Shown: positions 10,942 to 42,498, numbered from the stretch's first letter. The stretch is DNA of 42,498 nt from Verrucomicrobiota bacterium (GCA_038214755.1 JBBQRQ010000041.1:1-42498); one strand, 5' to 3'. Made by a program: numbers and translations. The notes: generated from the letters alone by a model not told the origin.

Positions 10942-12243
10942 TTAGGCGTGAATCGTGTCTGTTTTCAAATACGGCTGGAGCGGCACGGGAATTTTCACGC
11001 TACCATCCGCCTGCTGATGCGTCTCAATTAACGCCACAAATAATCGCGCCAGCGCCGTCCCGCTGCCGTTTAAGATGTGCGGAAATTTATTTTCGCCGGA
11101 ATCAGTTTTGAAACGCGTCCCCATTCGTCGCGATTGAAAATCTTCGCAGTTCGAGCAACTCGAAACTTCGAGATAACTTCCCTGTCCCGGCGCCCAAACT
11201 TCGATGTCATACGTTTTCGCGCTGGCAAAACCCATGTCGCTGGTGCAAAGCAAAATCACTTGGTAATGAAGGTTGAGCAGTTGCAAAACCTTCTCCGCGT
11301 GCGCGACCATTTTCTCCAATTCATCGTAGCTGTTTTCCGGCTTCACGATTTTAATCAACTCCACTTTGTCGAATTGATGGACACGAATCATCCCGCGCGT
11401 GCCGAGACCCGCCGCGCCCGCCTCGCCGCGAAAGCACGGGCTGTAAGCGCAATATTTTATCGGCAACTCTTTCTCGGATAAAATTTCTTCGCGGTGAATG
11501 TTGGCGACCGGCGTTTCCGCGGTAGGAATCAAATAAAGTTTTCCGAGTTCGTTTCGATCATCGCCGACCGCCACGCCGTAATATTGGTCTTTGAATTTCG
11601 GAAATTGCCCGACGCCTTCCAGGCACTGCGGCCCGACGACGAATGGTGGTGAAACTTCGGTGTAGCCATGCTCGGTCGTGTGAAGATCGAGGAGAAATTG
11701 AATCAAAGCCCGTTCCAATCGCGCGCCCCAATTGGTGTAGAGCAGAAAACCGCTGCCGGAAAGTTTCACCGCGCGCGAGAAATCAATCAGCTTCAACTGC
11801 TCGCTAATTTCGACATGCGACTTCGGCTGGAACGCGAAATTGGGTTTCTCTCCATGACTGCGAACGAACGGATTTTCCTCCGCCGATTTGCCAACCGGAA
11901 CACTTTCATGCGGCAGGTTCGGCAACTTCAGCATGTAGGACTTTAGAACCGATTCAACCTCCGCAACTTGCTGATCGAGTTCCACAATGCGATCTCCGAT
12001 TTCGTGCGTCTCCTTTTTTTTCGCCTCGGCTTCGTCGATTTTTTTCTGCCCCATCAATGCGCCGATTTCTTTGGAAACTTTATTGCGCAACGCCTTCAAC
12101 TGCTCCACTGCGGTCAGCCATTTGCGTCGCTGTTCATCGAGCGAAAGAATTTCGTCCACGAATTTCTCATCACCGCCGTGACGCGAGGCGAGGCGTTGGC
12201 GCACCAGATCGGTTTGTTCGCGAATCAACTTCATGTCGAGCAT
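10942..12243 (-). CDS. serS: serine--tRNA ligase
   Basis: MLDMKLIRE, LPNLP, LIPTAE, CFRGEAG, GMIRVHQFDKVE, EVSSCSNC, LNGSG. Confidence 0.98.
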   Translation of the reverse strand: MLDMKLIREQTDLVRQRLASRHGGDEKFVDEILSLDEQRRKWLTAVEQLKALRNKVSKEIGALMGQKKIDEAEAKKKETHEIGDRIVELDQQVAEVESVLKSYMLKLPNLPHESVPVGKSAEENPFVRSHGEKPNFAFQPKSHVEISEQLKLIDFSRAVKLSGSGFLLYTNWGARLERALIQFLLDLHTTEHGYTEVSPPFVVGPQCLEGVGQFPKFKDQYYGVAVGDDRNELGKLYLIPTAETPVANIHREEILSEKELPIKYCAYSPCFRGEAGAAGLGTRGMIRVHQFDKVELIKIVKPENSYDELEKMVAHAEKVLQLLNLHYQVILLCTSDMGFASAKTYDIEVWAPGQGSYLEVSSCSNCEDFQSRRMGTRFKTDSGENKFPHILNGSGTALARLFVALIETHQQADGSVKIPVPLQPYLKTDTIHA

Positions 12244-12301
12244 CGACGGATTATAGGAATGCGACTTTGCGCGGCAACGACTTTAAGAAAAGAGTTTCCA
12301 A
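12118..12301. repeat. serS 5' end plus promoter, native copy of a three-copy direct repeat
   Basis: 12118-12284 matches 14097-14263 (2 mismatches in 167 nt by eye); 12210-12301 matches 13050-13141. Confidence 0.95.
12250..12277 (-). promoter_or_regulatory. putative sigma70 promoter of serS, leaderless arrangement
   Basis: TTGCCG-N16-TATAAT-N6-ATG on the minus strand. Confidence 0.7.
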
Positions 12302-12446
12302 ATACGGCACGCGTGGGAAATCAGCAAATCGTTTGGCTGCACGAGCATTATCCCCGCGAATTGCCCAATAGTTGGCTGGAATTTTAAGAAGGTTTTGCCG
12401 AAGCTTTATCGTTGCGCGACGCCCTTTGCATTCCTACTTTTTCAAT

Positions 12447-12677
12447 ATGAGTAATGTTACAGTTTCCCTCCCTGACGCTTTGGATGCGCAGATTGAAAAC
12501 CGATTCAAAGTGGGCGGCTTTCGCTCGAAGGAAGAATATTTGCTGGCGTTGGCGCGCGCGGATTGCGAACAGTCCGAACTCGAAATGGTCTTGGAAGAAC
12601 GACTCCAAGGCCCGTTCTCGCCGCTTGAGCCTGATTGGAAAGAACGCGTCCGTAAAGCAGCCAAAGATCGTGACTGA
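12447..12677 (+). CDS. ribbon-helix-helix antitoxin (ParD-like)
   Basis: VTVSLPDALDAQIE...GGFRSKEEYL; overlaps the downstream toxin. Confidence 0.8.
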   Translation: MSNVTVSLPDALDAQIENRFKVGGFRSKEEYLLALARADCEQSELEMVLEERLQGPFSPLEPDWKERVRKAAKDRD

Positions 12678-13002
12678 AAAACGAATCGAACGTCATTTGT
12701 CCGTCATGGAGGATGATCTTCCGGGAATCTATGCATTCATCGCAAAAGACAATCCCGCCGCGGCCGAACGAGTCCTCGACGCAGTGGAAGAAACATTTCT
12801 GCAAATTGCGCGGCATCCCGAGTGCGGAATGTTTTTCCGAACGCGCAAGGCAAAGCAGCAAGGACTGAGAATGTTTCCCGTGAGCCGGTTTCAAAACTAT
12901 CTCGTGTTTTACCGCGATGAAAAAGAAAGTGTGCGCGTTCTCTATGTGGTCCACGGCGCGAGGCATTTGCTCCGTTTATTTCAACACGAGCCGCGCACAT
13001 AA
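12670..13002 (+). CDS. ParE/RelE family toxin
   Basis: DLPGIYAFIAKDNPAAAER, HPECG, NYLVFYR, VRVLYVVHGAR. Confidence 0.88.
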   Translation: MTEKRIERHLSVMEDDLPGIYAFIAKDNPAAAERVLDAVEETFLQIARHPECGMFFRTRKAKQQGLRMFPVSRFQNYLVFYRDEKESVRVLYVVHGARHLLRLFQHEPRT

Positions 13003-13049
13003 GAAATAGAAAAAATTTTAAAGCAAAAGCACGTCGATTTTGTTATCTG

Positions 13050-13141
13050 CGGTTTGTTCGCGGATCAACTTTATGTCGAGCATCGGCGCAGTATAGGAAT
13101 GAGCTTTGGCGGGGCAACGAATTTAAGGATAGAGTTTCCAA
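13050..13141. repeat. diverged copy of serS 5' end plus promoter
   Basis: Offset 840 from 12210-12301, about 13 mismatches in 90 nt; keeps TTGCCC-N16-TATACT-N6-ATG. Confidence 0.9.
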
Positions 13142-13236
13142 CTACTCCCGCTGGAAATTCGCTGCGAATGAGTATTGAACTTCGCGCTGAAAAGCGGTTG
13201 CTTGCCTGAAACAGTTCTCAATGCATAATTAGTCCC

Positions 13237-13434
13237 GTGAGCGCACAGCAATTCATTGCAGGGTTCAAAGAACTATCGCCAACCCAACGCGCACAAGTCG
13301 CCAAGTTCATTGTGGAAAACGATGACTCCTGGATTCCTGATGAATTTAAGGACGCCATGAAAGATTTGGACGCCGGGCGGTTGGTCGATATGGAAACCGC
13401 TTTATTTGAAACGCCGCCGCCACGTCTGCGATGA
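13237..13434 (+). CDS. putative antitoxin
   Basis: 65-aa acidic protein with ATGA overlap to a RelE-like toxin. Confidence 0.75.
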   Translation: MSAQQFIAGFKELSPTQRAQVAKFIVENDDSWIPDEFKDAMKDLDAGRLVDMETALFETPPPRLR

Positions 13435-13706
13435 AATATCGCTACCGCGCCGTTGAACGATTCTGGACCAGCTTCTATCGTCTTTCTTCCGCTCAAAAAG
13501 AATCCGCGCGCAAAGCCTGGAAAATTTTCAAGGAAAACCCTTTTGATCCTCGTTTGCGGTCGCATAAAATCGAACGTCTTTCCGCCAGCTATGGGCGCAC
13601 GATTTACGCCGTCGAAATTGAAGGCGATTTGCGTTCGACGTTTTGTTTGGACGGCGACACCGTGGTTTCGTTGATTATCGGCACGCATGATATTTACAAG
13701 GGTTGA
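13431..13706 (+). CDS. RelE/StbE-like mRNA interferase toxin
   Basis: FWTSFYRL...FKENPFDPRLRSHKI...DLR...IGTHDIY. Confidence 0.85.
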   Translation: MKYRYRAVERFWTSFYRLSSAQKESARKAWKIFKENPFDPRLRSHKIERLSASYGRTIYAVEIEGDLRSTFCLDGDTVVSLIIGTHDIYKG

Positions 13707-13759
13707 CTTTCTGGGGCCGAACACGTTCTTGGCGCAACTGAAGAAACGAACAGATTCCC

Positions 13760-13951
13760 CGGCATCCCGAGTGCGGAATGATTTATTGCACACGCAACTC
13801 GATGCGGCAAAGGTTGAAAATGTTGCCCGTGAGTGGGTTTCGCAACTACCTCGTATTTTAGCGCGATGACGAAGAAAGTATCCGCGTTCTTTATGTTGTT
13901 CATGGCGCCAGGCATCTGCTCCGTTTGTTCCGACACGAGCCGCGCACGTAA
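13760..13951 (+). pseudogene. degenerate copy of the 3' two-thirds of the ParE toxin at 12670-13002
   Basis: Collinear with 12811-13002; in-frame TAG in place of TAC; no 5' part. Confidence 0.88.
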
Positions 13952-14093
13952 TCTGGCAACGCAGGGCTGAAGCGGGCTGAAATTTCGAGCGACTTTCAAT
14001 CTGTCATTGCGACTTTCAACCAAGCCGTGATTGCTTCACGGTCCTTTACCGCAAAGACGTCGAAAGCTTCTCCGCATTCTTTTTCCAGTTTCT

Positions 14094-14263
14094 TTACCAT
14101 TTGCGTCGCTGTTCATCGAGCGAAAGAATTTCGTCCACGAATTTCTCATCACCGCCGTGACGCGAGGCGAGGCGCTGGCGCACCAGATCGGTTTGTTCGC
14201 GAATCAACTTCATGTCGAGCATCGACGGATTATAGGAATGCGACTTTGTGCGGCAACGACTTT
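14094..14263 (-). pseudogene. duplicated serS 5' fragment (42 codons then TAA) with promoter
   Basis: ATG at 14222 gives MLDMKLIREQ...RRKW then stop; near-identical to 12118-12284. Confidence 0.93.
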
Positions 14264-14456
14264 CACCGTCGAAGTTTTAGTCTGGGGAGAAAAGCAGCGC
14301 CGAGAGGAAAGCTTTGCAAGCACGGGTGTTTTAGGAAAGGCAAGACCTGAAATGTATTTCTGGATTTTCGAACGTTCCTGGTTCGGTTCAGATTCCTTTC
14401 GGATTTCGGGTCAACTAGATATTGAAATTGATTTTCTCACCACGCACTCTTTCTTC

Positions 14457-14978
14457 ATGAAATTTCGCGCAGTTTGCGCCGCGATCTTCGCTGGATTCTT
14501 CCTTGCTGGATGTGGGAAGCCCGACGCGGCTTCGGCCCCTTTAACCGCTTCCGCTCCGCCATTGCCGACGCAAGCCCAACCGAAATTGCGCACGACAAAA
14601 CTTTGGATTGGCCCGGAGGAACTGGTCGTCGAGGTCGCGGAAACCGCAATTCAACAACAAACCGGCATGATGTTCCGCACCAACATCCCGGAAGACGTGG
14701 GAATGATTTTCATTCTGCCGTCTCCGCAACGCGCCGCGTTCTGGATGAAGAATTGTCCCGAATCGCTTTCCGCCGCCTACATCAGCCCGGATGGAGTGAT
14801 CCAGGAAATCCACCATTTGGAAAAGCACGACACCAATTCCGTCGTCGCCGCCAGTGACAACATTCAATTCGTTTTGGAAACAAAAGAGGGCTGGTTCCAG
14901 CGGCACAACATCAGCACCGGCGTCGTCGTGCGCACGGAGTTTGGCTCGTTGGAAAAAACATTTTTGCAAAGAAGATAG
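14457..14978 (+). CDS. DUF192 domain lipoprotein
   Basis: Lipobox FLAGC; VEVAET...GMMFR, GMIF, FWMKN, FVLE. Confidence 0.9.
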   Translation: MKFRAVCAAIFAGFFLAGCGKPDAASAPLTASAPPLPTQAQPKLRTTKLWIGPEELVVEVAETAIQQQTGMMFRTNIPEDVGMIFILPSPQRAAFWMKNCPESLSAAYISPDGVIQEIHHLEKHDTNSVVAASDNIQFVLETKEGWFQRHNISTGVVVRTEFGSLEKTFLQRR

Positions 14979-14980
14979 AA

Positions 14981-15118
14981 TGACGGCCAAAATAAATTTC
15001 CGAAAAGGCGGCTCGCCCACGGGACGCCGAACTCCGGCTCGGCTCGCGGCCGCCCAGCGTTCGGCCGGCTGCCGATTCGGAAATCGGCGTTCCCACCGGG
15101 AAATTTATTTGGGCAACC
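14981..15118. mobile_element. MITE-like element with REP core
   Basis: Terminal IRs GGCCAAAATAAATTTCC / GGAAATTTATTTGGGC; core GGGACGCCGA...TCGGCGTTCCC. Confidence 0.7.
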
Positions 15119-15137
15119 GATGGAACCCAATGGCCCG

Positions 15138-16775
15138 ATGAAAATTGCTCTCGCGCAAATCAACACGACGGTGGGTGACCTCGGCGGGAACGAATCGAAA
15201 ATTTTGGCGTCCTATCAACGTGGGGTCGATGCCGGCGCAGAAATAGTGGTCATGCCCGAACTCACCACCACGGGTTACCCACCGCGCGATCTGCTCCTGA
15301 AAAAAGAATTCGTTGCGCAAAATCTCGCGGCGCTAAATCGACTTGCCGCGGCCACTGGAAAAACTGCGTTGCTCGTCGGGCACGTTGGAGAAAATAATTC
15401 TCGCCCTGGCCGCAGCCTCACCAACAACGCCGCGCTTCTGCGCCATGGAAAAATTATCGCGACTCGCACCAAAACTCTTTTGCCCACTTACGATGTGTTT
15501 GATGAAGACCGTTATTTCCAACCGGCGGAGAAAAATTCGCCCGTCGATTTTGACGGAAAAAAACTCGGCCTGACCGTTTGCGAAGACATTTGGAATGACG
15601 AAGATTTCTGGCCGGAACGCCGTTATCGCAGTAATCCGCCGATGGAATTGAGCAACGAGGGAGCCAAAATACTTTTCAACATTTCGGCGTCCCCGTGGGC
15701 AGCCGGCAAAGAAAAAGTTCGACACGAGATGTTGTCGAGCCTCGCGCGAAAAGCCGGAACACCGATCGTCTTTTGCAATTTGATCGGAGGAAATGACGAA
15801 TTGATTTTCGACGGCAACAGCTTGGTTTTTAATTCCACCGGCCAACTCATCGCGCAGGCAGAATTGTTTGCCGAAGATTTTTTAGTGGTCGATACCGAGT
15901 CGTCCACAGCCGTGTCGCCGGACACGACTTCCGACGTGGAGAAAGTTTACCGCGCGCTCGTGCTGGGCTTGCGCGACTACTTGCAAAAATGCGGATTCAA
16001 ATCGGCGGTGCTCGGCGTGAGCGGCGGAATTGATTCTGCCGTGGTCGCTTGCCTGGCGGCTGACGCATTGGGAAAACAAAATGTGCGCGGCGTCTCGCTG
16101 CCGTCGGAATTTTCTTCGCAACACAGTTTGGATGACGCACGAATTTTAGCGGAGCGGCTTGGGATTGAGTACAACGTCATCCCCATTCAATCCGTTTTCG
16201 CCGCGACCAAACAGGCACTGAAACCGATCTTTGCGGGGCGCGCCGATGATACGACTGAGGAAAATATTCAAGCGCGACTGCGCGGCGTTTTGCTCATGGC
16301 GCTTTCGAATAAATTCGGTTCGCTGCTCCTCACCACGGGAAACAAAAGCGAACTGGGCGTCGGCTATTGCACACTTTACGGCGACATGTGCGGCGGGCTG
16401 GCCGTCATCAGCGACGTTCCAAAAACGATGGTTTATCAACTGGCAAAATGGATCAATCGCGAGCAGGAAATTATTCCCGTTTCATCCATCACCAAGGCGC
16501 CGTCGGCTGAATTGCGACGGGACCAGCGCGATCAGGATTTGTTGCCGCCGTATGAAATTCTCGATGCGATTTTGGATCAATATGTCGTCCACGGTCGTTC
16601 CGCCGGCGAAATAATTGAAAGGGGTTTTGAGGAAACTGTCGTGAAAAAAATTATTCGCTTGATCGATTTGAGCGAATACAAACGTCGTCAGGCCGCCCCC
16701 GGTTTGAAGGTCACGAGCAAAGCTTTTGGGGTGGGAAGGAGATTTCCGGTGGCGCAAAAATATCGCGACGCGTAA
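15138..16775 (+). CDS. nadE: glutamine-dependent NAD+ synthetase
   Basis: Nitrilase-type domain (ALAQIN, PEL, CEDIW) plus SGGIDS, ENIQAR, GNKSE, YGD, PSAEL, EYKRRQ. Confidence 0.97.
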   Translation: MKIALAQINTTVGDLGGNESKILASYQRGVDAGAEIVVMPELTTTGYPPRDLLLKKEFVAQNLAALNRLAAATGKTALLVGHVGENNSRPGRSLTNNAALLRHGKIIATRTKTLLPTYDVFDEDRYFQPAEKNSPVDFDGKKLGLTVCEDIWNDEDFWPERRYRSNPPMELSNEGAKILFNISASPWAAGKEKVRHEMLSSLARKAGTPIVFCNLIGGNDELIFDGNSLVFNSTGQLIAQAELFAEDFLVVDTESSTAVSPDTTSDVEKVYRALVLGLRDYLQKCGFKSAVLGVSGGIDSAVVACLAADALGKQNVRGVSLPSEFSSQHSLDDARILAERLGIEYNVIPIQSVFAATKQALKPIFAGRADDTTEENIQARLRGVLLMALSNKFGSLLLTTGNKSELGVGYCTLYGDMCGGLAVISDVPKTMVYQLAKWINREQEIIPVSSITKAPSAELRRDQRDQDLLPPYEILDAILDQYVVHGRSAGEIIERGFEETVVKKIIRLIDLSEYKRRQAAPGLKVTSKAFGVGRRFPVAQKYRDA

Positions 16776-16807
16776 ACGGACTTTAATTTTTTTGAAAAGG
16801 CTGTTTA

Positions 16808-17386
16808 ATGGCATCTATGATTGTCGAGGCTTTGCCTGAAACACCTGCGAAACGTCTTTGGACTTACGATGAAATGGTCGCCGAGTTGCCGGAGACCAAC
16901 CAACCCATTGAACTGTGGGACGGAGAACTTGTTATGTCGCCAACACCCACACCCAATCATCAAAGAATTGTTTTGCGTCTCACCGAAGAGTTAAACGCCT
17001 TTGTCCGCCGCGACCGTTTGGGCGAAGTTTTTATTAGTCCGCTGGACGTGATTTTATCGCCACATCGCGTCATCCAACCTGATGTTTTTTTCATTTCGAA
17101 CGCTAACAAGACTATCGTGCGAGATAGAGTGCGCGGTGTGCCCGATCTTGCGGTCGAAGTCATCTCGCCGGGGACGTGGAGGCGCGATCGGGTTGAAAAA
17201 AAGGCGCTCTACGAACAAGTTGGCGTAGCCGAATATTGGATTATCGATTCAGAGGCGCGCACGATTGAAGTGTTCGCACTGACGAAAGGGAGCTATCAGC
17301 TTCACTCTCGCGCAGAAGGAGCCGAGCTTGCGCAATCAAAACTTCTTGAGGGATTTTCCGTCGCATTCAGCCAGCTCGAAGTTTAA
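16808..17386 (+). CDS. Uma2 family putative endonuclease
   Basis: IELWDGELVM, HQ, QPDVFF, PDLAVEVISP, KKALY...GVAEYWIID. Confidence 0.92.
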   Translation: MASMIVEALPETPAKRLWTYDEMVAELPETNQPIELWDGELVMSPTPTPNHQRIVLRLTEELNAFVRRDRLGEVFISPLDVILSPHRVIQPDVFFISNANKTIVRDRVRGVPDLAVEVISPGTWRRDRVEKKALYEQVGVAEYWIIDSEARTIEVFALTKGSYQLHSRAEGAELAQSKLLEGFSVAFSQLEV

Positions 17387-17401
17387 GAAAGGACGCGGAA
17401 T

Positions 17402-17968
17402 TTATTTTTGGAAAATTTGCGCGGCGCGCAGGCGCAGGCCGGGAAGCAGTGGCGATTTAAAAACCGATTTCGAGTCGTGAGTCGCCGCAGGTGTTTCGCC
17501 ATCGCGAGCTAAATCATAGACCTGAATATTTTTCGCGTCAGGATCCACCACCCATAACTCCTTCACGCCGGTGCGCGCATAAATTTTTCGCTTGGAACCT
17601 TTGTCATATCGCGCTGTGCTCGGTGAAAGAATTTCCACCACGAGATCGGGCGGGCCTTCCGTGCCTTGATCAGTTAGAATTGATTTGTTCTCGTTTGAGA
17701 CGAAAACCACATCCGGTTGGTAAACGTTCACTTCGCTTAAATAAACATCGAGCGGAGAATAATAGATTTCTCCAATCGGATGTTTTTCCAAATAACTTCC
17801 GACCAGCAGAACGATGTTCCGCGAGATAACCTGGTGATACCGCAATGGCGATGGTGACATGACGAGGTCTCCTTCAATAAGTTGATAGTGCGGCGGGCCT
17901 TCCGGCAATTCGCGATAATCGTGAACGGTGATGAGCGGCAGAACGGTGGTTGATGTGGCTCGCGACAT
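17402..17968 (-). CDS. Uma2 family putative endonuclease
   Basis: QLIEGDLVM, HQ, QPDVVF, PDLVVEILSP, KRKIY...GVKELWVVD. Confidence 0.92.
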   Translation of the reverse strand: MSRATSTTVLPLITVHDYRELPEGPPHYQLIEGDLVMSPSPLRYHQVISRNIVLLVGSYLEKHPIGEIYYSPLDVYLSEVNVYQPDVVFVSNENKSILTDQGTEGPPDLVVEILSPSTARYDKGSKRKIYARTGVKELWVVDPDAKNIQVYDLARDGETPAATHDSKSVFKSPLLPGLRLRAAQIFQK

Positions 17969-19459: not shown

Positions 19460-19466
19460 AACGCAA

Positions 19467-19697
19467 ATGAACGCCGAACTTCTCAAACGCATCACGATTG
19501 AACCCGGCAAATGTGGCGGTCGCCCGTGTCTCCGTGGAATGCGGATGCGGGTGACGGATATTTTGCAGCTTTTGAGCGCAGGCGCACTTTACGAAGAAAT
19601 TTTGGAAGATTATCCCGATCTCGAACGCGAGGATATTCTGGCCGCAATTGAATACGCGGCCCATCAAACCGACCATGTCGTATTGCAGACGACGTGA
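19467..19697 (+). CDS. DUF433 family protein (putative antitoxin)
   Basis: RITIEPGKCGGRPCLRGMRMRV...EEILEDYPDLEREDILAAIEYA. Confidence 0.92.
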   Translation: MNAELLKRITIEPGKCGGRPCLRGMRMRVTDILQLLSAGALYEEILEDYPDLEREDILAAIEYAAHQTDHVVLQTT

Positions 19698-25075: not shown

Positions 25076-25320
25076 GAGCGTTGAGCAAAATCGCTTTCTT
25101 TGATTTTAGAAAAGCAGTTTGGACCCGCTTTCGGTTGCGCTTCGATTTCGTTGCCAGGCGCCGTGAGCGCGGGACGCGGGTTCGGGTTGGCGATGATGCG
25201 TTCCCACACCGCGTCGCCATTCAACTCCGGCAGGATATCGGGCAAATCTTCCACCAACTTTTCTCTTTCTCGCGGAGGCAGCGCGACTATCGCGGCTTCG
25301 ATTTCTTGAACGGTGCTCAT
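25072..25320 (-). CDS. putative antitoxin (MSTVQEIEAAI family)
   Basis: Similar to the 29458 protein (MSVQELE..., W-E/D-R); GTGA coupling to the toxin remnant. Confidence 0.75.
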   Translation of the reverse strand: MSTVQEIEAAIVALPPREREKLVEDLPDILPELNGDAVWERIIANPNPRPALTAPGNEIEAQPKAGPNCFSKIKESDFAQRS

Positions 25321-25740
25321 GGTGGAGAATGTTATATAACCCGATTGCCGAAGACAAACGTCTTGGCCGCGACTGGGCGAAACCGATTGCCTCTCACAAT
25401 CTTCGGAAAGAGATGGCGACGGAACGCCGATCTCCCGATCGGCATCGGGAACGCTCCCTATTTTCCGCGAGCCGATCAGGAGATCGGCGTTCCGTAAATT
25501 TTTCTCTTTCTCGCGGAGGCAGCGCGACTATCGCGGCTTCGATTTCTTGAACGGTGCTCATGGTGGAGAATGTTATATAACCCGATTGCCGAAAACAAAC
25601 GTCTTTGCCGCGACTGGGCGAGACCGATTGCATCTCACAATCTTCGGAAAGAGATGGCGACGGAACGCCGATCTCCCAATCGGCATCGGGAACGCTCCCT
25701 ATTTTCCGCGAGCCGATCAGGAGATCGGCGTTCCGTAAAT
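25259..25740. repeat. 241-bp tandem direct duplication (antitoxin 5' end, upstream region and REP)
   Basis: Units 25259-25499 and 25500-25740 differ at about 5 positions. Confidence 0.95.
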
Positions 25741-25817
25741 TTGGAGAAATTGAAATGCACCAGCGCAAATCCACTTTGAACTTTGAACTCAAACTCGACT
25801 GCCCTAATCTCCCGCGC

Positions 25818-28466
25818 ATGGCTCGAAAAGCAGCACCTCCGTCGCCCGCGCCGCATGGTTTCAACGACACCATTGGCATCGCGCTCATCGCCGCGGCGCT
25901 GTTGTTGATGGTCGCGCTCCTCACGCACGACCGGCGCGATCTCTCGGTCAATTCCGTTCCGCCCAACGAAGCGACCCACAATCTCGGCGGCCCGATCGGC
26001 GCGTGGGCTGCGAACAAAATGTTTTTCGTGTTTGGCGCGGGTGCATTTATTTTGCCGTTGCTCATGCTGGCGTTTGGCGTCGGTCATATTTTTCAATTTC
26101 TTTCTTATCTCCGACAGCGCTGGTTTTGGGCGGCCATTTTATTTTTCACCTGCCTCGGTCTGCTCGGATTTTATTCGTCGTGGTTTCCAGTCTTGACCCA
26201 AAATTTAAATGCGCCCGGCGCGGGTGGTCTCGTTGGTTTGATGGCGGACAAATATATTCGCCAATTGTTCGGACTGACTGGCGCGACCATTATTTTTCTG
26301 ACGTTTTATCTGCTCGCGCTGTTGAACCTGACCAATTTTCAACTGGGCGAATGGCTGCGCGCGAAGTGGTCGCCCGCTTTGAAGATCGATCCGAACGCGA
26401 CGCCGGACGAGAGAGAATTGGGAAAACGCGCGCGCGAGTTGGAAAAACAAGCCCGCAAATTACAGGAGCAAGAAACGGCCAGACTCGAGAAAGTCGCGGC
26501 CAGTTCTGAAAAGGAAAAATCTTCCGGCCTCGGCGCGGACTTGAAACCAGTCCCCACTCCGACCGTGCGCGATTTAAGTTTTCCCCAAACCAAACCGGAG
26601 CGTGGCGGAATATCCAAAACAGCAGAGCCGGAAAAGCGGAATGAGAAACCCGAAGTCGTTTTGGAAGAAGTTATTTCCGCGAAGGAAATTATCGCAGCGA
26701 CCACCGCTGACATTCTCGGAAAATCCGCCGGTAAAAATTCCGAGAGCGAGGAAATATCTTCCGCCGAATCCGCCGCCAGAAATGAAAATGGTTTGCCGGA
26801 GCCAATCATCACTTTGCCGGAAGCTTCGGGCAATGCCTTGAGAATTAAATCCGCCCCGCGCAAACCGAAGCCGATCACCGTCGCCTCCACGCCCATCATC
26901 GGAAATTATCAACTGCCCCCGCTCGATTTATTGCGCCATCCCGATATGACGGTGAAGGCGACCGAATCGAAGGAGGAATTGATGGCCAACGCGCGGCTCA
27001 TGCAGCAGACCCTCGCGCAATTCGACATCGAAGTTTCTCTCGGCGACATCACCAAAGGCCCGACCATCACGCGTTACGAATTGCATCCCGCGCCCGGCGT
27101 GCGCATGGAAAAAATTACCGCGCTCAACAACAACATTGCCGCGGTGTTGAAAGCGGAACGGATCAATATTCTCGCGCCGGTTCCCGGAAAAAGTTCGGTC
27201 GGAGTGGAGGTTCCGAACCTGATCAAAACGAAAGTCATCATTCGCGATCTGCTCGAATCCGAAGAATGGCAAAACACGAAGGCGCGCATTCCGCTCGCGC
27301 TGGGCAAAGATGTCTATGGCCACCCGATTATCGCCGATCTCGCGGAGATGCCGCACTTGCTCATCGCGGGCAGCACCGGTTCGGGAAAATCCGTTTGCAT
27401 CAATTCGATCATCGCCTCGTTGCTTTACAAATTTTCTCCAGACCAACTCCGCTTCGTCATGATCGATCCGAAGGTGGTCGAGTTGCAGCAATACAACGCG
27501 CTGCCGCATCTCGTCGTCCCCGTTGTCAACGATCCGAAAAAAGTCATTCTCGCTCTGCGCTGGGTCGTCAACGAAATGGAAAAGCGTTACCAGATTTTCG
27601 CGAAAGTCGGCGTGCGCAACGTGAAATCTTTCAACGAACGACCGAAGAACAAACCCATTCCGCAAGCAGAACCGGAACTTCCGCTGATGGCGAAAAAAGA
27701 AAAAGTGGAAGCTGGTTCGGAAGGTTTCGCCGTGGAACTCGACGAGGAAATCGTCGTGCCGCGCGACGACGATATTGTCATTCCGGAAAAACTTTCCTAC
27801 ATCGTCGTCATCATCGACGAGCTTGCGGACTTGATGCTCGTCGCTCCCGCCGATGTCGAAATGGCGATTGCGCGCATCACGCAAATGGCGCGCGCGGCGG
27901 GGATTCATTGCATCGTCGCGACGCAACGTCCGAGCGTCGATGTCATCACCGGCGTGATCAAGGCGAACATCCCGGCGCGCATCGCGTTTCAAGTTGCGGC
28001 ACGGGTGGACTCGCGCACGATTCTCGATGCGATGGGCGCGGACAAATTGTTGGGCAAAGGCGACATGCTTTATTTGCCGCCCGGCTCCGCCAGATTGATT
28101 CGCGCGCAAGGCGCATTGATCACCGATCAGGAAATTCAGGACATCGTCGATTTCATCGCGAAACAGGGCAAGCCGAGTTACGAAATTGAAATTCACAAGC
28201 AGTTGCAGAAGCCATTGATGATCGATAACGAAGGCGGTTGTGACGAAGACGAATCGCTCATCGAGCAATGCATCGAGGTGATTCGCAGCGAACAAAAAGC
28301 GAGCGTCTCGCTCATGCAACGCCGCCTGCGCCTGGGCTACACGCGCGCCGCCCGCATCATGGATGAACTGGAAAATCGCGGCGTCGTCGGCCCCAGCAAA
28401 GGCGCGGAGCCGCGGGATATTTTAATTGATCTGGATGGCGGGGGGGCGGATGGGGCGGGGCAATAG
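25818..28466 (+). CDS. ftsK: DNA translocase FtsK/SpoIIIE
   Basis: N-terminal TM segments, PHLLIAGSTGSGKS, IDPK, IIDELADLM, ATQRPS, LLGKGDML, gamma domain QRRLRLGYTRAAR. Confidence 0.97.
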   Translation: MARKAAPPSPAPHGFNDTIGIALIAAALLLMVALLTHDRRDLSVNSVPPNEATHNLGGPIGAWAANKMFFVFGAGAFILPLLMLAFGVGHIFQFLSYLRQRWFWAAILFFTCLGLLGFYSSWFPVLTQNLNAPGAGGLVGLMADKYIRQLFGLTGATIIFLTFYLLALLNLTNFQLGEWLRAKWSPALKIDPNATPDERELGKRARELEKQARKLQEQETARLEKVAASSEKEKSSGLGADLKPVPTPTVRDLSFPQTKPERGGISKTAEPEKRNEKPEVVLEEVISAKEIIAATTADILGKSAGKNSESEEISSAESAARNENGLPEPIITLPEASGNALRIKSAPRKPKPITVASTPIIGNYQLPPLDLLRHPDMTVKATESKEELMANARLMQQTLAQFDIEVSLGDITKGPTITRYELHPAPGVRMEKITALNNNIAAVLKAERINILAPVPGKSSVGVEVPNLIKTKVIIRDLLESEEWQNTKARIPLALGKDVYGHPIIADLAEMPHLLIAGSTGSGKSVCINSIIASLLYKFSPDQLRFVMIDPKVVELQQYNALPHLVVPVVNDPKKVILALRWVVNEMEKRYQIFAKVGVRNVKSFNERPKNKPIPQAEPELPLMAKKEKVEAGSEGFAVELDEEIVVPRDDDIVIPEKLSYIVVIIDELADLMLVAPADVEMAIARITQMARAAGIHCIVATQRPSVDVITGVIKANIPARIAFQVAARVDSRTILDAMGADKLLGKGDMLYLPPGSARLIRAQGALITDQEIQDIVDFIAKQGKPSYEIEIHKQLQKPLMIDNEGGCDEDESLIEQCIEVIRSEQKASVSLMQRRLRLGYTRAARIMDELENRGVVGPSKGAEPRDILIDLDGGGADGAGQ

Positions 28467-28506: not shown

Positions 28507-28710
28507 CTATCGCCCAAAGACTTCGACGATGCTGTCGGTATCAATGAGCACTGCTTCCTTCTCGCCGAAATAAATGATGAGATGATAGTCCCTGGTTGCC
28601 CCGACATCTCTGGGTTCCTTGAACGTATATTGCGCGCCGTTGTTGAGGCGAACGCCAAAGGAGCGAAACGGTTGGCGTTCCACCACGCCCTTGATGTCTT
28701 TGACTTTCAT
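28507..28710 (-). CDS. small hypothetical protein (PFxxF family), copy A
   Basis: 67 aa, QPFRSFGVRLNNG; TTGCCG-N16-TATTTT-N6-ATG; near-identical paralog at 29925. Confidence 0.82.
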   Translation of the reverse strand: MKVKDIKGVVERQPFRSFGVRLNNGAQYTFKEPRDVGATRDYHLIIYFGEKEAVLIDTDSIVEVFGR

Positions 28711-28758: not shown

Positions 28759-28787
28759 GATGAGTTGGAAAATCGCGGCGTCGTCGG
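28759..28787 (+). repeat. short duplicated ftsK 3' fragment (DELENRGVVG)
   Basis: 27 of 29 nt match 28362-28390; truncated by the adjacent REP element. Confidence 0.85.
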
Positions 28788-28788: not shown

Positions 28789-28970
28789 CTCTCATTAGCA
28801 CCCGGCTTCAGCCGGGTGAACAGGAACCGATTGCAACCCTTAACCGCTTTAGCGGTTTCCCGCATGAGGAAAACCGCTGAAGCGGTTGAACTCCCCCCAT
28901 CACTTCAACACCCGGCTCAAGCCGGGTGCTAATGAGATTCGGAACGAACATTTCGAGAAACTGAGATGCG
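28789..28970. mobile_element. REP/MITE element with nested inverted repeats
   Basis: CTCATTAGCACCCGGCTTCAGCCGGGTG...CACCCGGCTCAAGCCGGGTGCTAATGAG outer pair, inner AACCGC...GCGGTT pair, right terminus GAAACTGAGATGCG. Confidence 0.85.
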
Positions 28971-29457: not shown

Positions 29458-29655
29458 ATGAGCGTGCAAGAACTTGAATCAATTGTGACCAAGCTCCCGG
29501 CTGACGAACTGGCTCGTTTCTCCGAGTGGTTCGAGGAATTCATGGCTGACCAATGGGATCGGCAAATCGAACAGGACATGCTCGCAGGCCGCCTCGACGC
29601 CGCAATTAAACGCGCCGACGAAAATTACGAAGCAGGCCATTGCAAACCGCTTTGA
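29458..29655 (+). CDS. putative antitoxin
   Basis: MSVQELE...LARFSEWFEEF..DQWDRQIEQD..AGRLD; TTGA coupling to the toxin. Confidence 0.85.
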   Translation: MSVQELESIVTKLPADELARFSEWFEEFMADQWDRQIEQDMLAGRLDAAIKRADENYEAGHCKPL

Positions 29656-29911
29656 ACCATCTCGCCGATCCAGATTTCTGGTTTCACTACCGCCAACTTC
29701 CAGACGGCATTCGCGCTCTTGCGGACAAAATTTCCAACTGCTTAAAGCGAATCCGAGGCATCCGTCCATTCAATTGAAAAAGATCGGTGTTCTTTATTCA
29801 GCGCGAGTTGGACTTCACTATCGCGCCCTCGCGAGAGAACGTCCCGATGGTCTTCAGTGGTTTTGGATTGGACATCATTCGGCTTACGATCAGTTGCTCC
29901 GTCTGCGGTAA
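29652..29911 (+). pseudogene. ParE-like toxin with a 1-nt deletion
   Basis: Restoring one A at 29727-29730 gives an intact frame: NHLADPDFW...DKNFQLLKANPRHPSIQLKKIG..SARVGLHYRALA...WFWIGHHSAYD. Confidence 0.85.
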
Positions 29912-29924: not shown

Positions 29925-30125
29925 TCACCTAAAGACTTCGATGATGCTGTCGGTCTCAATGAGCACTGCTTCTTTTTCGCCGAAATAAATGATGAGATGA
30001 TAGTCCCTGGTTGCCCCGACATCTCTGGGTTCCTTGAACGTATATTGCGCGCCGTTGTTCAGGCGAATGCCAAAGGAGCGAAACGGTTGACGTTCCACCA
30101 AGCCTTTGATGTCTTCAACTTTCAT
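29925..30125 (-). CDS. small hypothetical protein (PFxxF family), copy B
   Basis: 66 aa, near-identical to 28507-28710 including its upstream promoter region. Confidence 0.82.
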   Translation of the reverse strand: MKVEDIKGLVERQPFRSFGIRLNNGAQYTFKEPRDVGATRDYHLIIYFGEKEAVLIETDSIIEVFR

Positions 30126-30175: not shown

Positions 30176-30279
30176 TGAATTGGAGAATCGCGGCGTTGTG
30201 AGCGCGAGTAAAGGCTGAGGCACGGGAGATTTTAAATTGATCTGGACGGCGGCGGAGCCGATGGAGCGGGGCAATAGAA
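30176..30279 (+). pseudogene. degenerate duplicate of the last ~35 codons of ftsK
   Basis: Collinear with 28364-28468 (ELENRGVV.ASKG...IDLDGGGADGAGQ*), with indels and a stop. Confidence 0.88.
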
Positions 30280-30283: not shown

Positions 30284-30343
30284 AGACTTCCACAATGCTG
30301 TCGTTCTGAATGGACACTGCTTCCTTCTCGCCGAAATAAATAT
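30284..30343 (-). pseudogene. 3' remnant of a third PFxxF-family gene copy
   Basis: AGACTTCCACAATGCTGTCG...CACTGCTTCCTTCTCGCCGAAATAAA matches 28518-28574. Confidence 0.82.
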
Positions 30344-30365
30344 CAACGATAGTCCACAGTTGAAA

Positions 30366-36880: not shown

Positions 36881-37018
36881 GGTGGGAATTTCCCAGATGA
36901 AAACATCGAAATCAACTTCAATCGCGGAAAGCAAAAAGTTGGAAGCAAAGGGGGAACCGTTTGGTTTGTTGAATTGATGCTCACGTTTCACGTTTCACGT
37001 TTCAACGATTCGGCAAAA

Positions 37019-38833: not shown

Positions 38834-38838
38834 GGCAA

Positions 38839-39471
38839 TTACTTTTTCACTGGGCCAAGCACCTCGTTGAAGGCGCGCCCTTCACCGCGAGGCAAGGCAA
38901 TGTTGTGTCCCTCGGTCGATTGGATCAGCACAAAGGGCAAATGTTCTTTGACGTTTTTTCCGACGAACGATTCGTAGAGCACCGCCTGTTGGATCGAACC
39001 AAAAGTCGGGAAGGAGATTCCTTCAAAATTTTTGCTTTGCATCCTGGCCGTCGCCGCGAGTTCCCGCTGTGTGATCAGCCGCGCGTTGATCAAAGCCATT
39101 CCCATCAAAATCATGCAGGCGAAACGAATCATCCCGGCCAGCATACCCAAATAATATTCGGTCGCGCCAAAAAAATTGCTGCCCAAAAGTTTCTCCCCAA
39201 CCGCCCGTTGAATTTGCAGAAATAAAATTTTCGTCAGGATGGCGAACCCGACATAAACCGTCACAAAACAGGTCAGCAGACTGAAAGGAACCTGCGCTGA
39301 AAGCATGGAACCGAGAGGTTCGTAAATTCTGGCGCCGACAAAAACAATCATCAGCCATTGCAGAAAGTTCAGCAACTCTTCGGACATTCCGCGCTTGCGT
39401 CCGCGGAAAATGCCGATGGCCAAGAGCACCAGGACGATGCCGTCCACGTAATTGAAGTGCAAATCTTTCAT
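38839..39471 (-). CDS. CvpA family membrane protein
   Basis: VDGIVL...GRKRGMSEE, LGMLAGMIR, multiple TM helices. Confidence 0.85.
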   Translation of the reverse strand: MKDLHFNYVDGIVLVLLAIGIFRGRKRGMSEELLNFLQWLMIVFVGARIYEPLGSMLSAQVPFSLLTCFVTVYVGFAILTKILFLQIQRAVGEKLLGSNFFGATEYYLGMLAGMIRFACMILMGMALINARLITQRELAATARMQSKNFEGISFPTFGSIQQAVLYESFVGKNVKEHLPFVLIQSTEGHNIALPRGEGRAFNEVLGPVKK

Positions 39472-39627
39472 AGCTCGCCGCGTCTTCCAAGCAGGAACGC
39501 TACCAAAAGCAGCACCGCTTACGAGCAGATACTAGCCCGCGCGATTTTTAACTCGAATTTCATCCTTCACGCTTTTTAAAGGCGAGCATTCTTGCTTGGA
39601 AAAATCCATTGGACTAAACTCCGCCGC

Positions 39628-39867
39628 GTGAAAAGCTATCAGGAATTTGAGATCAACTATTTCCAGGACGAGGATGGGATGTTCACTGCCGCAGTGCCGG
39701 CCATCCGTGGTTGTGTGGCTTGGGGAAAAACGCTGCTGGAAACCTACCACAACGCGGTGGATGCGATTGAAAGTTGCCTCGAAGCACGGGCAATGGTGGC
39801 GGCCAAAAAACCTCGCAAGCCTCGCTACGCCGGCGTGAATATTTACCGCCGTCCGATTCATGCCTAA
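39628..39867 (+). CDS. HicB family antitoxin
   Basis: DEDGMFTAAVPAIRGCVAWGKTLLE..NAVDAIESCLE. Confidence 0.88.
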   Translation: MKSYQEFEINYFQDEDGMFTAAVPAIRGCVAWGKTLLETYHNAVDAIESCLEARAMVAAKKPRKPRYAGVNIYRRPIHA

Positions 39868-40230
39868 ACTGGACCGATTCAGTTGGACAGATTATTCGCC
39901 CTCACCCTAACCCTCTCCCCCGAGGGGAGGGAACCTGCCAGCAGGGTCCGCAATCAGGCATTAAACGGTGAATATTTTCCAACGCTGAATAATATTCTCC
40001 CTCTCCTCGGAGGAGAGGGCCGGGGTGAGGTCGAGCGTTTCTCTTCACTGAATAGTTCCGGCTAAACTGGTGCCGATCTCGCACCGCGACCTGGCGCGAA
40101 AACTTCGGCGCGCGGGTTTCGTGGAAATCCGCACCCGCCGCCATCCGGTTTATTATTCGGCGGAAAAAGACCTCACTGTTCCAATTCCAATGCATCCCGG
40201 CGACGTGCCCAAGGGAACTTTGCGGAGCAC
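39860..40230 (+). pseudogene. HicA toxin split by a MITE and truncated at the 3' end
   Basis: Removing 198 nt restores MPKLVPISHRDLARKLRRAGF...H...VPIPMHPGDVPKGTLRS; the last helix is missing. Confidence 0.85.
39868..40062. mobile_element. MITE (same family as 6500-6683) inserted in hicA
   Basis: IRs ACTGGACCGATTCAGT / ACTGAATAGTTCCGGC; TAA at 39865-39867 and 40063-40065. Confidence 0.85.
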
Positions 40231-40287
40231 GCCAAGTCCGCCGTCGTTCTGGTTGGGACGCATGACTGATACAGGCCGTCGTTTATG

Positions 40288-40359
40288 GTAGGGCGCGTCA
40301 CCCCGTGCGCGCCGCTGCTCGCATGCACAAGCGGCGCGCAAAGAACTGACGCGTCCTAC
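40288..40359. repeat. GTAG REP doublet upstream of RAYT
   Basis: GTAGGGCGCGTCACCCCGTGCGCGCCGC...GCGGCGCGCA...TGACGCGTCCTAC. Confidence 0.88.
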
Positions 40360-40416
40360 CTCTTACCATGCTATTCGCGTTTGCCTCTATTGCGCCGTCG
40401 TCGTTAGGCTCCATGC

Positions 40417-40885
40417 ATGGAATTACCCGTCCGCAAAAAGATTCCGCATTACGATTCCACAATGGGTTGCCGAAGGCAGTTGGTTTTTCATCACTATCAA
40501 ATGCGTGCCTCCGGGAAAAAATCAATTGTGCCGCGCCGACACTGGCGACGCCGCTCTTGCGGCAATGAAACACAACCATGAAAAACTCGCCTGGCACTGC
40601 CGCCTCTGTTTGCTTATGCCCGATCATTTGCACGCGATCCTCGCGTTCCCGCGCGAACCGGGAATCGCGACGGCAATTAAAAACTGGAAGAAATATGTGG
40701 CCGGAAAATACGCCGTGGAATGGCAACGCGACTTCTTCGATCATCGCTTGCGCGATCATCACGAATGGGAAGAGAAGATCAGCTACATCCTGATGAATCC
40801 CGTTCGTAAAGGTTTCTGCGAACGGGCCGAAGATTGGGTATGGATCTATCGTCCAAACGACCGACCAACGCCGCATCTTGGGTAG
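40417..40885 (+). pseudogene. REP-associated tyrosine transposase (RAYT, Y1 HUH) with an apparent +1 frameshift near 40450
   Basis: FFIT, MPDHLH (HUH), WQRDFFDHRLR, YILMNPV; ATG 40417 (MELPVRKKIPH) is one base out of frame with TIPQWVAEGSWFFIT. Confidence 0.85.
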
Positions 40886-40957
40886 GGCGCGTCACTCCGT
40901 GCGCGCCGTTCGTTTGGCATATACAGCCACGGCGCGCACGGAGTGACGCGCCCTACC
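40881..40957. repeat. GTAG REP doublet downstream of RAYT (supplies its TAG stop)
   Basis: Perfect 29-bp IR GGTAGGGCGCGTCACTCCGTGCGCGCCGT. Confidence 0.92.
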
Positions 40958-40959
40958 AA

Positions 40960-41221
40960 TCGTGTCCAATGATTTGTACGCTACCGGAATTTTGAAATCG
41001 GAAGCGCCAAAAAATCCGAAAAAACCATTCCGGAAATCCATCGCCACCATAAGAAACTCGCGCGCGCGTGCGACTGCGACGTGAAGAAGCTGATGAATCA
41101 TTATCGCCAACGCGAAAGTGAGCGCGACGACAAAGGCCGCCAACTGGTTTCACTCGTTGAATTTGCTCGCGCGACTGAAACTTCTAAATTAAGCGCAGCG
41201 AAGGCGCATTCCACATACTGA
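40960..41221 (+). pseudogene. decayed TA remnant (PIN-toxin C-terminus and small partner gene)
   Basis: CPMICTLPE resembles the PxICTPEE end of PIN toxins; followed by EIHRHHKKLARACDCDVKKLMNHYRQRE without a clear start. Confidence 0.45.
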
Positions 41222-41236
41222 ACTAAAGGCCAATAA

Positions 41237-41320
41237 AGCAAATGATACAGGCTTGCTCCAGACGTGTTGCCCGGCTCCGGCGAGGCTGACGGGATGAAGG
41301 ATCGCGCCAGCTTTCACGCC
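41237..41320 (-). pseudogene. diverged duplicate of a gltX 3' segment
   Basis: AGCAAATGATACAGGCT...GGCGAGGC.GACGGGATG...CTTTCACGCC is collinear with 41668-41750. Confidence 0.85.
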
Positions 41321-41553
41321 GCCTTTGAAGTCGGAATATCTTCAATGCTGGCAATGTGGAGAATGGAGCAGCGTCGAGTATTCAAAGCAATGCCTTCCGC
41401 GTTCGGATCAAGCCCAATCTCAACCGCGTTTTGAAGTATCCACGCCGCGTCATGATGTGGAACATCATAGGTTTCGCCGTTTGACATTTTGATTCGAAAC
41501 GGACGGAAGGGTTCTTCATCCAGCCGCTCTTTGAGTTGGTTTGCCGTAAACAT
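41314..41553 (-). CDS. small hypothetical protein (PFxxF family)
   Basis: 79 aa, EPFRPFRIKMSNGETYDVPH; distant relative of the 28507 and 29925 proteins. Confidence 0.82.
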   Translation of the reverse strand: MFTANQLKERLDEEPFRPFRIKMSNGETYDVPHHDAAWILQNAVEIGLDPNAEGIALNTRRCSILHIASIEDIPTSKAA

Positions 41554-41603
41554 ATTTTGCCTTTGCTAGTAGCTTTTGTCGGAGCGGTTTGTCCTGTCAA
41601 ATT

Positions 41604-42498
41604 TTATTCGCCCTGACTCAACGCCCGCTCAATCCGCGCCATCACCTTCTCTTTCCCCAACACTTCCAGCAAATGATACAGGCTCGGTCCAGAAGTGTTG
41701 CCGGTGCAGGCGAGGCGGACGGGATGGACGAGCACGCCGGCTTTCACGCCGAGTTCGGCGGCGGTGGCTTTCAACGCGGCTTCGAGATTCGCGGCGTTGA
41801 ACGGATCGACGTTCGCAAAGGCGTCTCGGAGTTTTTGCAGGCGCGGTTTGTTTTCCGGCGTGAAATCTTTCGCGGCGGCTTCGGGAGAGATTTTTATTTC
41901 TTCGGCGAAATAAAATCCGGCATACGGACCGAGTTCGGAAAATTTTTTTACTTTGCCGCGACAGGTGTCGAGCCCGGCGTTGACGTATTCGGTGGAAAAC
42001 TTTTCAAGAGGAAAATTCGCGCGGCGCAACGCGTCTATGCTGAGTTCGCGGAATCGTTCGGGCGGCAGTTCGCGGATGTATTCGCCGTCGAGCCAGTGCA
42101 ATTTTTCCAGATCGAACCGCGCGTTGTGCCGGAGAATTTGCGGGAGGTCGAAGAGCGCGATGATGTCGGCGAGAGGCATTTTCTCGCGGTTATTTTTCGG
42201 CGACCAGCCGAGCAGACACAAATAATTCACGACCGCTTCAGGCACATAACCTTCGTCCATATAAAATTTCAACGACGCGCCCTGATCGCGTTTGCTCATT
42301 TTCGTGCCGTCGAGATTCAGGATGAGCGGGATGTGCGCATACTTCGGCGGCTCGACGCCAAACGCGCGGAAGAGCGCGATGTGTTTGGCGGTGTTGGAAA
42401 GATGATCTTCGCCGCGAATGACGTGGGTGATTTTCATTTCCAAATCGTCCACGACATTGACGAAATGGAAAACCGGCTGGCCATCGGAGCGCACGATC
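41604..42498 (-). CDS. gltX: glutamate--tRNA ligase (partial; 5' end outside the window)
   Basis: VVDD, ITHVIRGEDHLSNT, HIPLI, KMSKR, LLGW, PVRLACTG..SGP. Confidence 0.97.
   Translation of the reverse strand, partial: IVRSDGQPVFHFVNVVDDLEMKITHVIRGEDHLSNTAKHIALFRAFGVEPPKYAHIPLILNLDGTKMSKRDQGASLKFYMDEGYVPEAVVNYLCLLGWSPKNNREKMPLADIIALFDLPQILRHNARFDLEKLHWLDGEYIRELPPERFRELSIDALRRANFPLEKFSTEYVNAGLDTCRGKVKKFSELGPYAGFYFAEEIKISPEAAAKDFTPENKPRLQKLRDAFANVDPFNAANLEAALKATAAELGVKAGVLVHPVRLACTGNTSGPSLYHLLEVLGKEKVMARIERALSQGE

Follow-up and report, generated by a model that had tools for sequence, protein, structure and literature searches.

Copies of core-gene ends flank small accessory genes at serS, ftsK and gltX and across the genome of an uncultured Verrucomicrobiota bacterium

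Genes and gene-end copies at the three loci

The DNA analysed here, a stretch of 42,498 nucleotides (nt) referred to as the window, is contig C41 of G000, the genome of an uncultured bacterium (5.1 Mb in 175 contigs, 97% complete) that probably belongs to Verrucomicrobiota subdivision 3/Limisphaerales, judging by the labels of most of its nearest named gltX relatives. Three unrelated housekeeping genes in the window, serS, ftsK and gltX, are accompanied by partial copies of one of their ends, and small accessory genes (the cargo) lie between gene and copy. In the genome, 4630 genes were called with our own codon-model script, so start positions are approximate; the identities of window genes were taken from Pfam (55 open reading frames, ORFs, scanned), and repeats were located by self-BLAST and direct sequence comparison. 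A preliminary description of the window had listed two extra copies of the serS 5′ end, two of the ftsK 3′ end and one of a gltX 3′ segment, and all five were found. Its view of them as copies of gene termini holds for most, but the gltX copy and a 29-nt ftsK copy end 64 and 76 nt before the stop codon, respectively. Accessory genes do lie between the copies at serS and ftsK, as it stated, whereas at gltX this is true of one PFxxF-motif gene and not of the HicB, HicA and transposase genes, which lie beyond. No tyrosine or serine recombinase, again in agreement with that description, was found among the 55 ORFs scanned. The features are as follows.

serS locus
10942..12243, minus strand: serS, intact anchor gene, 433 amino acids (aa); Pfam Seryl_tRNA_N and tRNA-synt_2b
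12210..12305, minus: working serS start with promoter-like TTGCCG-16-TATAAT (12277-12250); self-BLAST, sequence
12447..13002, plus: ParD-like antitoxin (12447-12677; weak ParD-family match, E 0.006) and ParE toxin (12670-13002; PF05016, E 8e-13)
13050..13145, minus: serS start copy 1, promoter and 11 codons; 85% identical to own gene, 93% to congeners G001 and G003 over 75 nt
13237..13706, plus: pair of genes (65 and 91 aa), likely an antitoxin and a RelE/YoeB-like toxin; YoeB match weak (E 0.24)
13715..13951, plus: broken parE remnant without start, 77% like 12762-13002; self-BLAST, translation
14097..14263, minus: serS start copy 2, promoter and 42 codons followed by a stop, adjoining a DUF192 gene; 98.8% identical to the working start

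ftsK locus
25755..28466, plus: ftsK, intact anchor gene, start approximate; Pfam FtsK domains, gene call
28507..28710, minus: PFxxF-motif small gene, copy A, 67 aa; sequence
28759..28787, plus: 29-nt ftsK fragment, cut by an inverted repeat (28790-28937) like a repetitive extragenic palindrome (REP); self-BLAST
29458..29911, plus: likely antitoxin (29458-29655) and ParE-like toxin split across two reading frames; PF24732, E 5e-5, for the second piece
29925..30125, minus: second PFxxF gene, A′, of 66 aa; its DNA is 91% identical to that of A
30176..30279, plus: ftsK tail copy with stop codon, frameshifted; cargo-side junction the same as in the 29-nt fragment
30284..30355, minus: third PFxxF fragment, decayed, directly after the tail copy; self-BLAST

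gltX locus
41237..41321, minus: copy of the gltX 3′ segment, from 148 to 64 nt before the stop; self-BLAST
41314..41553, minus: PFxxF gene of 79 aa, which congeners G002, G005, G006 and G007 likewise have behind gltX
41604..42498, minus: 3′ part of gltX, anchor, cut by the contig end; Pfam tRNA-synt_1c and Anticodon_2

Outward from serS the order is the start with its promoter, the ParD-like/ParE pair on the opposite strand, copy 1, the 65/91-aa pair, the parE remnant, copy 2 and the DUF192 gene. Copy 2 repeats the working start over 167 nt (12118-12284/14097-14263, 98.8%, E 8e-80) and copy 1 over 96 nt (12210-12305/13050-13145, 85%). The 65/91-aa pair has no Pfam or NCBIfam match and has 71% paralogues on contig C117, which also carries a fourth serS start copy (promoter and 18 codons), unlinked to serS. 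Every start copy includes the promoter-like TTGCCG-16-TATAAT, placed six bases 5′ of the ATG; the working start also has 21 nt on its cassette side in common with copy 1 and the C117 copy. The -10 box and its short distance to the ATG (12250-12243) are conserved in six congeners and suggest a leaderless transcript. Copy 1 and the C117 copy hold congener-type bases absent from the working gene, whereas copy 2 is 99% like that gene; simple decay of a self-duplication would not explain copy 1, which resembles two congeners (93%) more than its own gene (85%). The C117 copy stands within a train of at least five toxin–antitoxin-type modules and a DNA methylase (C117:11956-14705, L307:6957-9706), and a congener-type serS start in such a train indicates that gene-end pieces can leave their gene together with cassettes. 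The end of C117 overlaps the ends of C80, C95 and C109.

The assembled contigs of one public sequencing run, possibly the source of the assembly, served as the read check in place of long reads. Separately assembled run contigs were identical to 12240-13454, 13532-14126 and 14219-15200 at a depth of 21-24, serS itself having a depth of 22-26; at the left joint of copy 2 just 29 nt were covered on one side. A joint 13706->12190 in the run contigs was taken at first for a second strain and was rejected, as it equals C117 of G000 itself and is not evidence for a co-occurring allele.

At ftsK, the gene tail is followed by PFxxF copy A, the 29-nt fragment, a decayed ORF, the toxin–antitoxin-like pair, A′, the 106-nt tail copy and the PFxxF fragment. 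The tail copy matches the gene over 106 nt (28364-28468/30176-30279, 81%, E 4e-20) and the fragment over 29 nt (28362-28390/28759-28787, 93%, E 7e-5), while the longest repeat at the locus is the cargo gene itself (28508-28784/29923-30199, 91%). Just upstream of ftsK, a 241-bp spacer-free tandem duplication (25249-25742, 96-97%) holds an 82-aa antitoxin-like gene start and a REP-like hairpin.

The gltX repeat (41668-41751/41237-41321) spans 85 nt at 85% (E 5e-19), and the first bases of the copy supply the stop codon of the PFxxF gene, the only gene between gltX and copy. Beyond it lie HicB and HicA in reversed order, split by a REP-like element found also at 6495-6663 (39628-40291), and a REP-associated tyrosine transposase (40505-40885) flanked by its own inverted repeats (40286-40958). 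The PFxxF proteins, 66-90 aa long, number 11 genes in the genome by motif search; they matched no Pfam or NCBIfam family and fall into unnamed Atlas clusters in Verrucomicrobiota and Planctomycetota. Elsewhere in the window, no gene-end copy was detected at a convergent pair of putative Uma2 nuclease genes (16808-17968), which has nadE on one side and an aminotransferase gene on the other, or at a lone DUF433 gene (19467-19697).

Gene-end copies across the genome and in congeners

The preliminary description had proposed a genome-wide search for short copies of core-gene termini, and such copies proved to occur across the genome. We divided 2292 genes of at least 600 nt into five 120-nt segments each and searched these within 8 kb; paralogues and segments with a distant match were dropped, so that serS and ftsK themselves were excluded, and gltX failed on contig distance. 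Correctly placed local direct copies were obtained for 53 of 4584 terminal segments and 10 of 6876 interior ones (odds ratio 8.0, p 1e-12). First segments gave 17 upstream direct copies and no others; last segments gave 36 downstream direct, three upstream direct and one inverted; the three interior segments gave 2, 1 and 8 (one inverted). Start copies thus lie upstream and tail copies downstream in 53 of 56 cases.

Two screens together yielded 73 gene ends in 66 regions, of which 60 regions were re-aligned after removal of two window regions, three repeat-protein-like and two others, and addition of one. With the three window loci these comprise 75 copies at about 66 ends, with a median length of 103 nt and a median spacer of 777 nt. 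Identity to the parent gene is 75-100% (median 86%; at least 95% in 7 of the 75, below 80% in 14). The anchors include gatA, nuoF, purB, deoC, pyc, galK, accC, tkt, pheT, glyA, purD, recF, ilvD, acs, nadA, purC, murG, aroF, pilB, lysS and lipA, and 19 of 64 have no NCBIfam match at E 1e-20. The inner boundary of 3′ copies varies from 36 to 609 nt into the gene, whereas in 33 of 55 the outer one lies at -12 to +5 nt relative to the stop codon. No shared junction motif was found; 5-mer enrichment at junctions gave only the GC-rich words expected from coding DNA.

The cargo is small, 90 of 130 ORFs being at most 150 aa (35% genome-wide). By our own count 26 of the approximately 66 sites carry a toxin–antitoxin-type family: ParE, HigB, YafQ/RelB, PemK, PIN, HicB, HEPN/MNT, AbiEii, Fic, DUF433/DUF5615 and others, the DUF families being ones that we take to be of this type. 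Among the 130 ORFs there was no integrase or transposase family at E 1e-4, no methylase or named restriction family (one Uma2 putative nuclease was present, and the DNA methylase of the C117 train sits outside any repeat pair), and no ORF with a close second copy elsewhere in the genome. That copies should be commoner beside accessory genes, as the preliminary description required, holds for 3′ copies, which are enriched where the next gene is small (27/625 vs 9/1667, p 3e-9), but not for 5′ copies (7/625 vs 10/1667, p 0.27).

In congeners, ftsK tail copies occur in three of the five with the locus and gltX copies in four of six, while serS start copies were found in none of six (one contig stops 160 nt upstream). 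The lengths of the ftsK copies in four species are 106, 128, 200 and 1609 nt, and the cargo varies: G007 has a ParE-like pair, G005 a PIN pair and G002 none that was recognised. At gltX the junction is common to four species, and at 5-7 of 7 diagnostic sites each of five copies agrees in type with the tail of the gene that it accompanies; the cargo is 71-84% identical between species. Gene order is heavily scrambled among congeners; the gene after serS is conserved in all six, and in the window its place is taken by a DEAD-box helicase gene.

With flanks of 1.5 kb, five congeners were compared at seven more anchors, and copies were seen at purB in 4 of 4, at deoC in 2 of 4 and at mqnE in G005 and G007. 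At purB, the G000 copy and the DNA downstream of it match the working gene end and downstream DNA of G001, and at mqnE copy and flank match the working gene end and flank of G007, which suggests that the far copy keeps the old neighbourhood. MqnE itself is 390-498 aa long among congeners (L088, L138, L139) through an internal multi-copy segment. Empty sites were seen at nadA in G001 and G003, where nadA adjoins the neighbour found on the far side of the copy in G000, and at deoC in G003. In the DNA of their deoC cargo, G000 and either G005 or G007 are 94-95% identical, compared with 85-88% for deoC; G005 and G007 share one junction and differ in the DNA beyond the copy, and G000 has another junction (142 vs ~60 nt). 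In G005, three purB tail copies separate a block of four genes of Wadjet type, a MazE/PemK pair and other genes; the block lies between purB and its first tail copy (L315:678-7218). Cassette content at these gene ends hence varies among relatives as had been predicted: cargo differs at the same end, copies stack, and sites may be empty.

In a wider search of metagenome loci, gltX tail copies were found in 5 of 77 testable ones, three repeating known congener loci and two new (L235 and L299; the L299 cargo is a Y1 transposase), and serS end copies in 0 of 57 testable 5′ and 0 of 58 testable 3′ loci (80 fetched, no conspecific among them). In G021, of another family, an 81-nt serS tail copy brackets a nucleotidyltransferase pair. 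A protein search of 121 genomes in the order gave an adjacent second ftsK tail match in two, G005 and G110 (2 of 119 in the tally of wider loci), an undercount, as it missed the window's own frameshifted copy. In G110, the copy of the ftsK tail (230 nt, 97%) forms the end of an ORF that joins a T5orf172 nuclease-like part to FtsK gamma domains (L312:1982-3088), possibly a new gene made by duplication. These results show that the copies are a real, genome-wide and genus-wide feature; some gene ends are hotspots of the genus, and elsewhere the per-gene rate is about 2%, as across G000.

Origin of the copies

From these results, a hypothesis on the origin of the copies may be put forward: host homologous recombination, anchored by homology at the gene end, has probably inserted the DNA of relatives together with its cargo and displaced the old end. 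A cell would take up a piece of a relative's DNA comprising a gene end and neighbouring cargo, and recombination at the gene end, with a sequence-independent joint on the far side, would rebuild the working gene and push the old end outward as a truncated direct copy. The piece may be trimmed, circularised and integrated by a single crossover, or a linear piece may integrate with an illegitimate joint inside the gene end. In most copies the outer edge is at a stop codon or promoter, the point beyond which donor and recipient would no longer be similar. Repeated events would stack cassettes with the newest beside the gene; the far-side copy could then serve as a second homology arm, allowing a cassette to move between species with different neighbours, and toxin–antitoxin addiction would retain it. 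Of this scheme we infer the uptake, the RecA dependence, the circular or linear intermediate, the second-arm step and the retention; homologues of recA, comEC and dprA are present in the genome. For serS, the simplest history would have two steps, their order read from 75 nt: a congener-type start, accompanied by the 65/91-aa pair, took the place of the native start, now copy 2, and a conspecific start that came with parDE then took the place of the congener-type start, now copy 1. Precedents exist: in E. coli experiments in which the incoming DNA was homologous on one side, 56 of 60 recombinants had a duplicated lacZ end, ascribed to trimming, circularisation and one crossover (PMC3240628), and transformation can create duplications through repeats (PMC3784515).

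Several observations weigh against this hypothesis. The frequency reported for the E. coli events is very low, about 6e-9, and linear homology-facilitated illegitimate recombination is described as generally yielding deletions (PMC3240628). A quarter of the copies are shorter than 67 nt, which is short for a RecA crossover, and lineage calls made from alignments of 60-100 nt are weak. Cargo GC content (52.4%) equals that of the genome (52.7%), so composition gives no sign of foreign origin. Within the 1.5-kb flanks, copies were found in 0 of 5 congener loci at purC, 0 of 4 at aroF, 0 of 5 at galK and 0 of 4 at nadA; no empty site with the window's far neighbour was found in congeners for serS, ftsK or gltX, and no circle joint or empty-allele joint appeared in the contigs of the single run. 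The gltX pattern, which would suit a copy used again as a second arm, is also compatible with old vertical inheritance and gene conversion, given the cargo's identity of only 71-84% between species.

A broader proposal may be made only tentatively, and we regard it as doubtful: that the copies are working second homology arms, and that the gene ends form a genus-wide, recombinase-free network of cassette exchange with integron-like ordered arrays, a main route by which toxin–antitoxin and defence genes are acquired and swapped in these Verrucomicrobiota despite the scrambled gene order.

Among the alternatives, an enzyme acting in trans (an integron integrase, a Xer-type recombinase, a REP-associated HUH transposase or a cargo nuclease) could start the insertion, the long duplication then coming from break repair. 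We consider this unlikely. C31 does carry a complete integron integrase gene (446 bits; cut-off 265) and C135 a fragment of one, and the window has its REP-associated transposase at 40505-40885 and many REP-like hairpins, to which the Y1 transposase behind gltX in L299 may be added; for restriction–modification cargo, double-strand breakage was suggested by Furuta et al. (PMC2853133). Yet the only full IntI lies on a contig without any of these sites, where it is accompanied by one divergent cassette-like gene at the contig end (C31:46598-48622). The junctions have no common motif, GTTR/YAAC occurring at 15 of 75 (12.1 expected, p 0.22), and their hairpin energy resembles background. AttC-like sites were found in 0 of 74 spacers under strict and 4 of 74 under loose settings, none of them in window spacers, by crude scans with no validated positive control. 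Most recognised cargo toxins, moreover, presumably belong to RNase or gyrase-inhibitor families and not to DNases.

An origin from conventional islands, which encoded an integrase, inserted in a protein-coding gene with a replacement for its end and were deleted down to their toxin–antitoxin genes, is quite unlikely. The geometry itself would suit such islands: e14 and phage 21 in icd split the gene end in the same way. A serine recombinase is encoded 1.8 kb from one of the sites, on C7, and toxin–antitoxin islets left by mobility-gene loss were proposed for Photorhabdus (PMC13617665). However, about 66 targets face only five tyrosine (the C31 integron integrase among them) and one serine recombinase matches in the genome; apart from the C7 case all are unlinked, the nearest tyrosine recombinases being 11.6 and 14.7 kb from a site. 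The 7 copies of at least 95% identity, some with spacers below 1 kb, show no integrase relic, and the annotated congener loci have no integrase between gene and copy in the part of their ORFs scanned. Nor is the crossover point fixed: junctions vary between species at ftsK and deoC, and the serS copies contain 11, 18 and 42 codons, although the gltX junction is shared.

Local tandem duplication of the gene end within one genome, followed by entry of cargo and by gene conversion that kept the copies alike, would account for the 241-bp duplication upstream of ftsK, the PFxxF-ftsK unit repeated at 91% and the gltX copies that follow their own gene's type. We give this little credence, as serS copy 1 and the C117 copy carry the congener-type bases missing in the working gene, interior segments are rarely copied, homology mostly ends at the stop codon, and the cargo ORFs are without close second copies elsewhere in the genome. 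Finally, that the repeats are assembly chimeras of co-occurring strains is extremely improbable: the assembly has 175 contigs with gltX at a contig end, the long reads are lacking, the run may be the assembly source and 29 nt cover one side of a copy 2 joint, but separate run contigs are identical across most of the serS region at serS-like depth, which speaks against chimerism, most copies are 75-95% identical with frameshifts, and independent congener genomes have the same structure at the same genes.

Comparison with known systems

It is still debated how chromosomal toxin–antitoxin islets that stand alone are acquired without mobile elements; a study of 2026 invokes transposase loss followed by recombination at both flanking core genes (PMC13617665). 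The sites described here suggest a one-anchor route that works even where the far neighbour is not conserved. They leave a countable genomic signature, about 2% of the genes tested here plus dated stacks, which island finders requiring an integrase or attC would miss.

Integrons and gene-end islands are alike in part: integrons form ordered arrays of small cassettes rich in toxin–antitoxin genes, and islands rebuild the gene end and displace the old one. Unlike in either, there is here no linked integrase and no common recombination site, the repeat differs at each locus and the junctions are variable. Neisseria minimal mobile elements exchange cassettes without an integrase beside conserved genes by homologous recombination; they depend on a conserved gene to either side and do not duplicate a gene end, whereas here the far neighbour differs between congeners.

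The closest array analogue is sequential displacement in the arrays of type VI effector–immunity modules and of Rhs and contact-dependent inhibition orphan modules, where new modules enter beside a conserved anchor, older ones are pushed outward, members come from other strains and the same recombination route is proposed (PMC5361080). Those arrays are limited to toxin-delivery loci and the variable end of the anchor is replaced (PMC5361080); here the anchors are unrelated housekeeping genes of unchanged function, and the cargo consists of separate genes. Homology-facilitated illegitimate recombination and circle integration likewise have a one-sided anchor and no dedicated recombinase, the circular route giving gene-end duplications of 109-950 bp; they differ in being laboratory events of very low frequency, with a linear route that reportedly gives deletions (PMC3240628).

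The preliminary description did not recognise the arrangement as a named system, and in this it has to be corrected: insertion with long target duplication already describes the pattern. In the published account, cargo lies between long, variable direct repeats without a mobile element, and the repeats often span a start or stop (PMC2853133). That account further has cargo below 20 kb, direct repeats above 30 bp that are unique in the genome, an intact target, an empty site in a relative and, in many cases, a naturally competent host (PMC2853133). The 75 copies agree in exceeding 30 bp and in not being genome-wide repeats (multi-copy repeats were filtered), the exceptions being the 29-nt window copy and the extra serS copy on C117. 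The inserts likewise stay below 20 kb and lack a mobile-element gene, and empty sites were seen between species at nadA and deoC; none with the window's far neighbour was found at serS, ftsK or gltX. The restriction and modification genes on which the original screen was based are absent from the inserts. Papers using the term 'long target duplication' included none with toxin–antitoxin cargo by title among the matches listed (one of them, a toxin–antitoxin review, has the term in its reference list alone), and a search that left most subscription papers outside found none on gene-end copies with such cargo at genome scale or in Verrucomicrobia.

Insertion with long target duplication was known for restriction–modification genes, with few cases per genome and repeats identical at 44-47 of 45-47 nt in the table rows seen (PMC2853133, Table 2). 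Here, the cargo is mostly toxin–antitoxin and other small genes, about 66 sites occur in one genome at 75-100% identity, and there are serial stacks, genus-wide hotspots and foreign-type copies. What these sites add is the scale, the toxin–antitoxin cargo, the stacking, the shared hotspots and the evidence of exchange between species.

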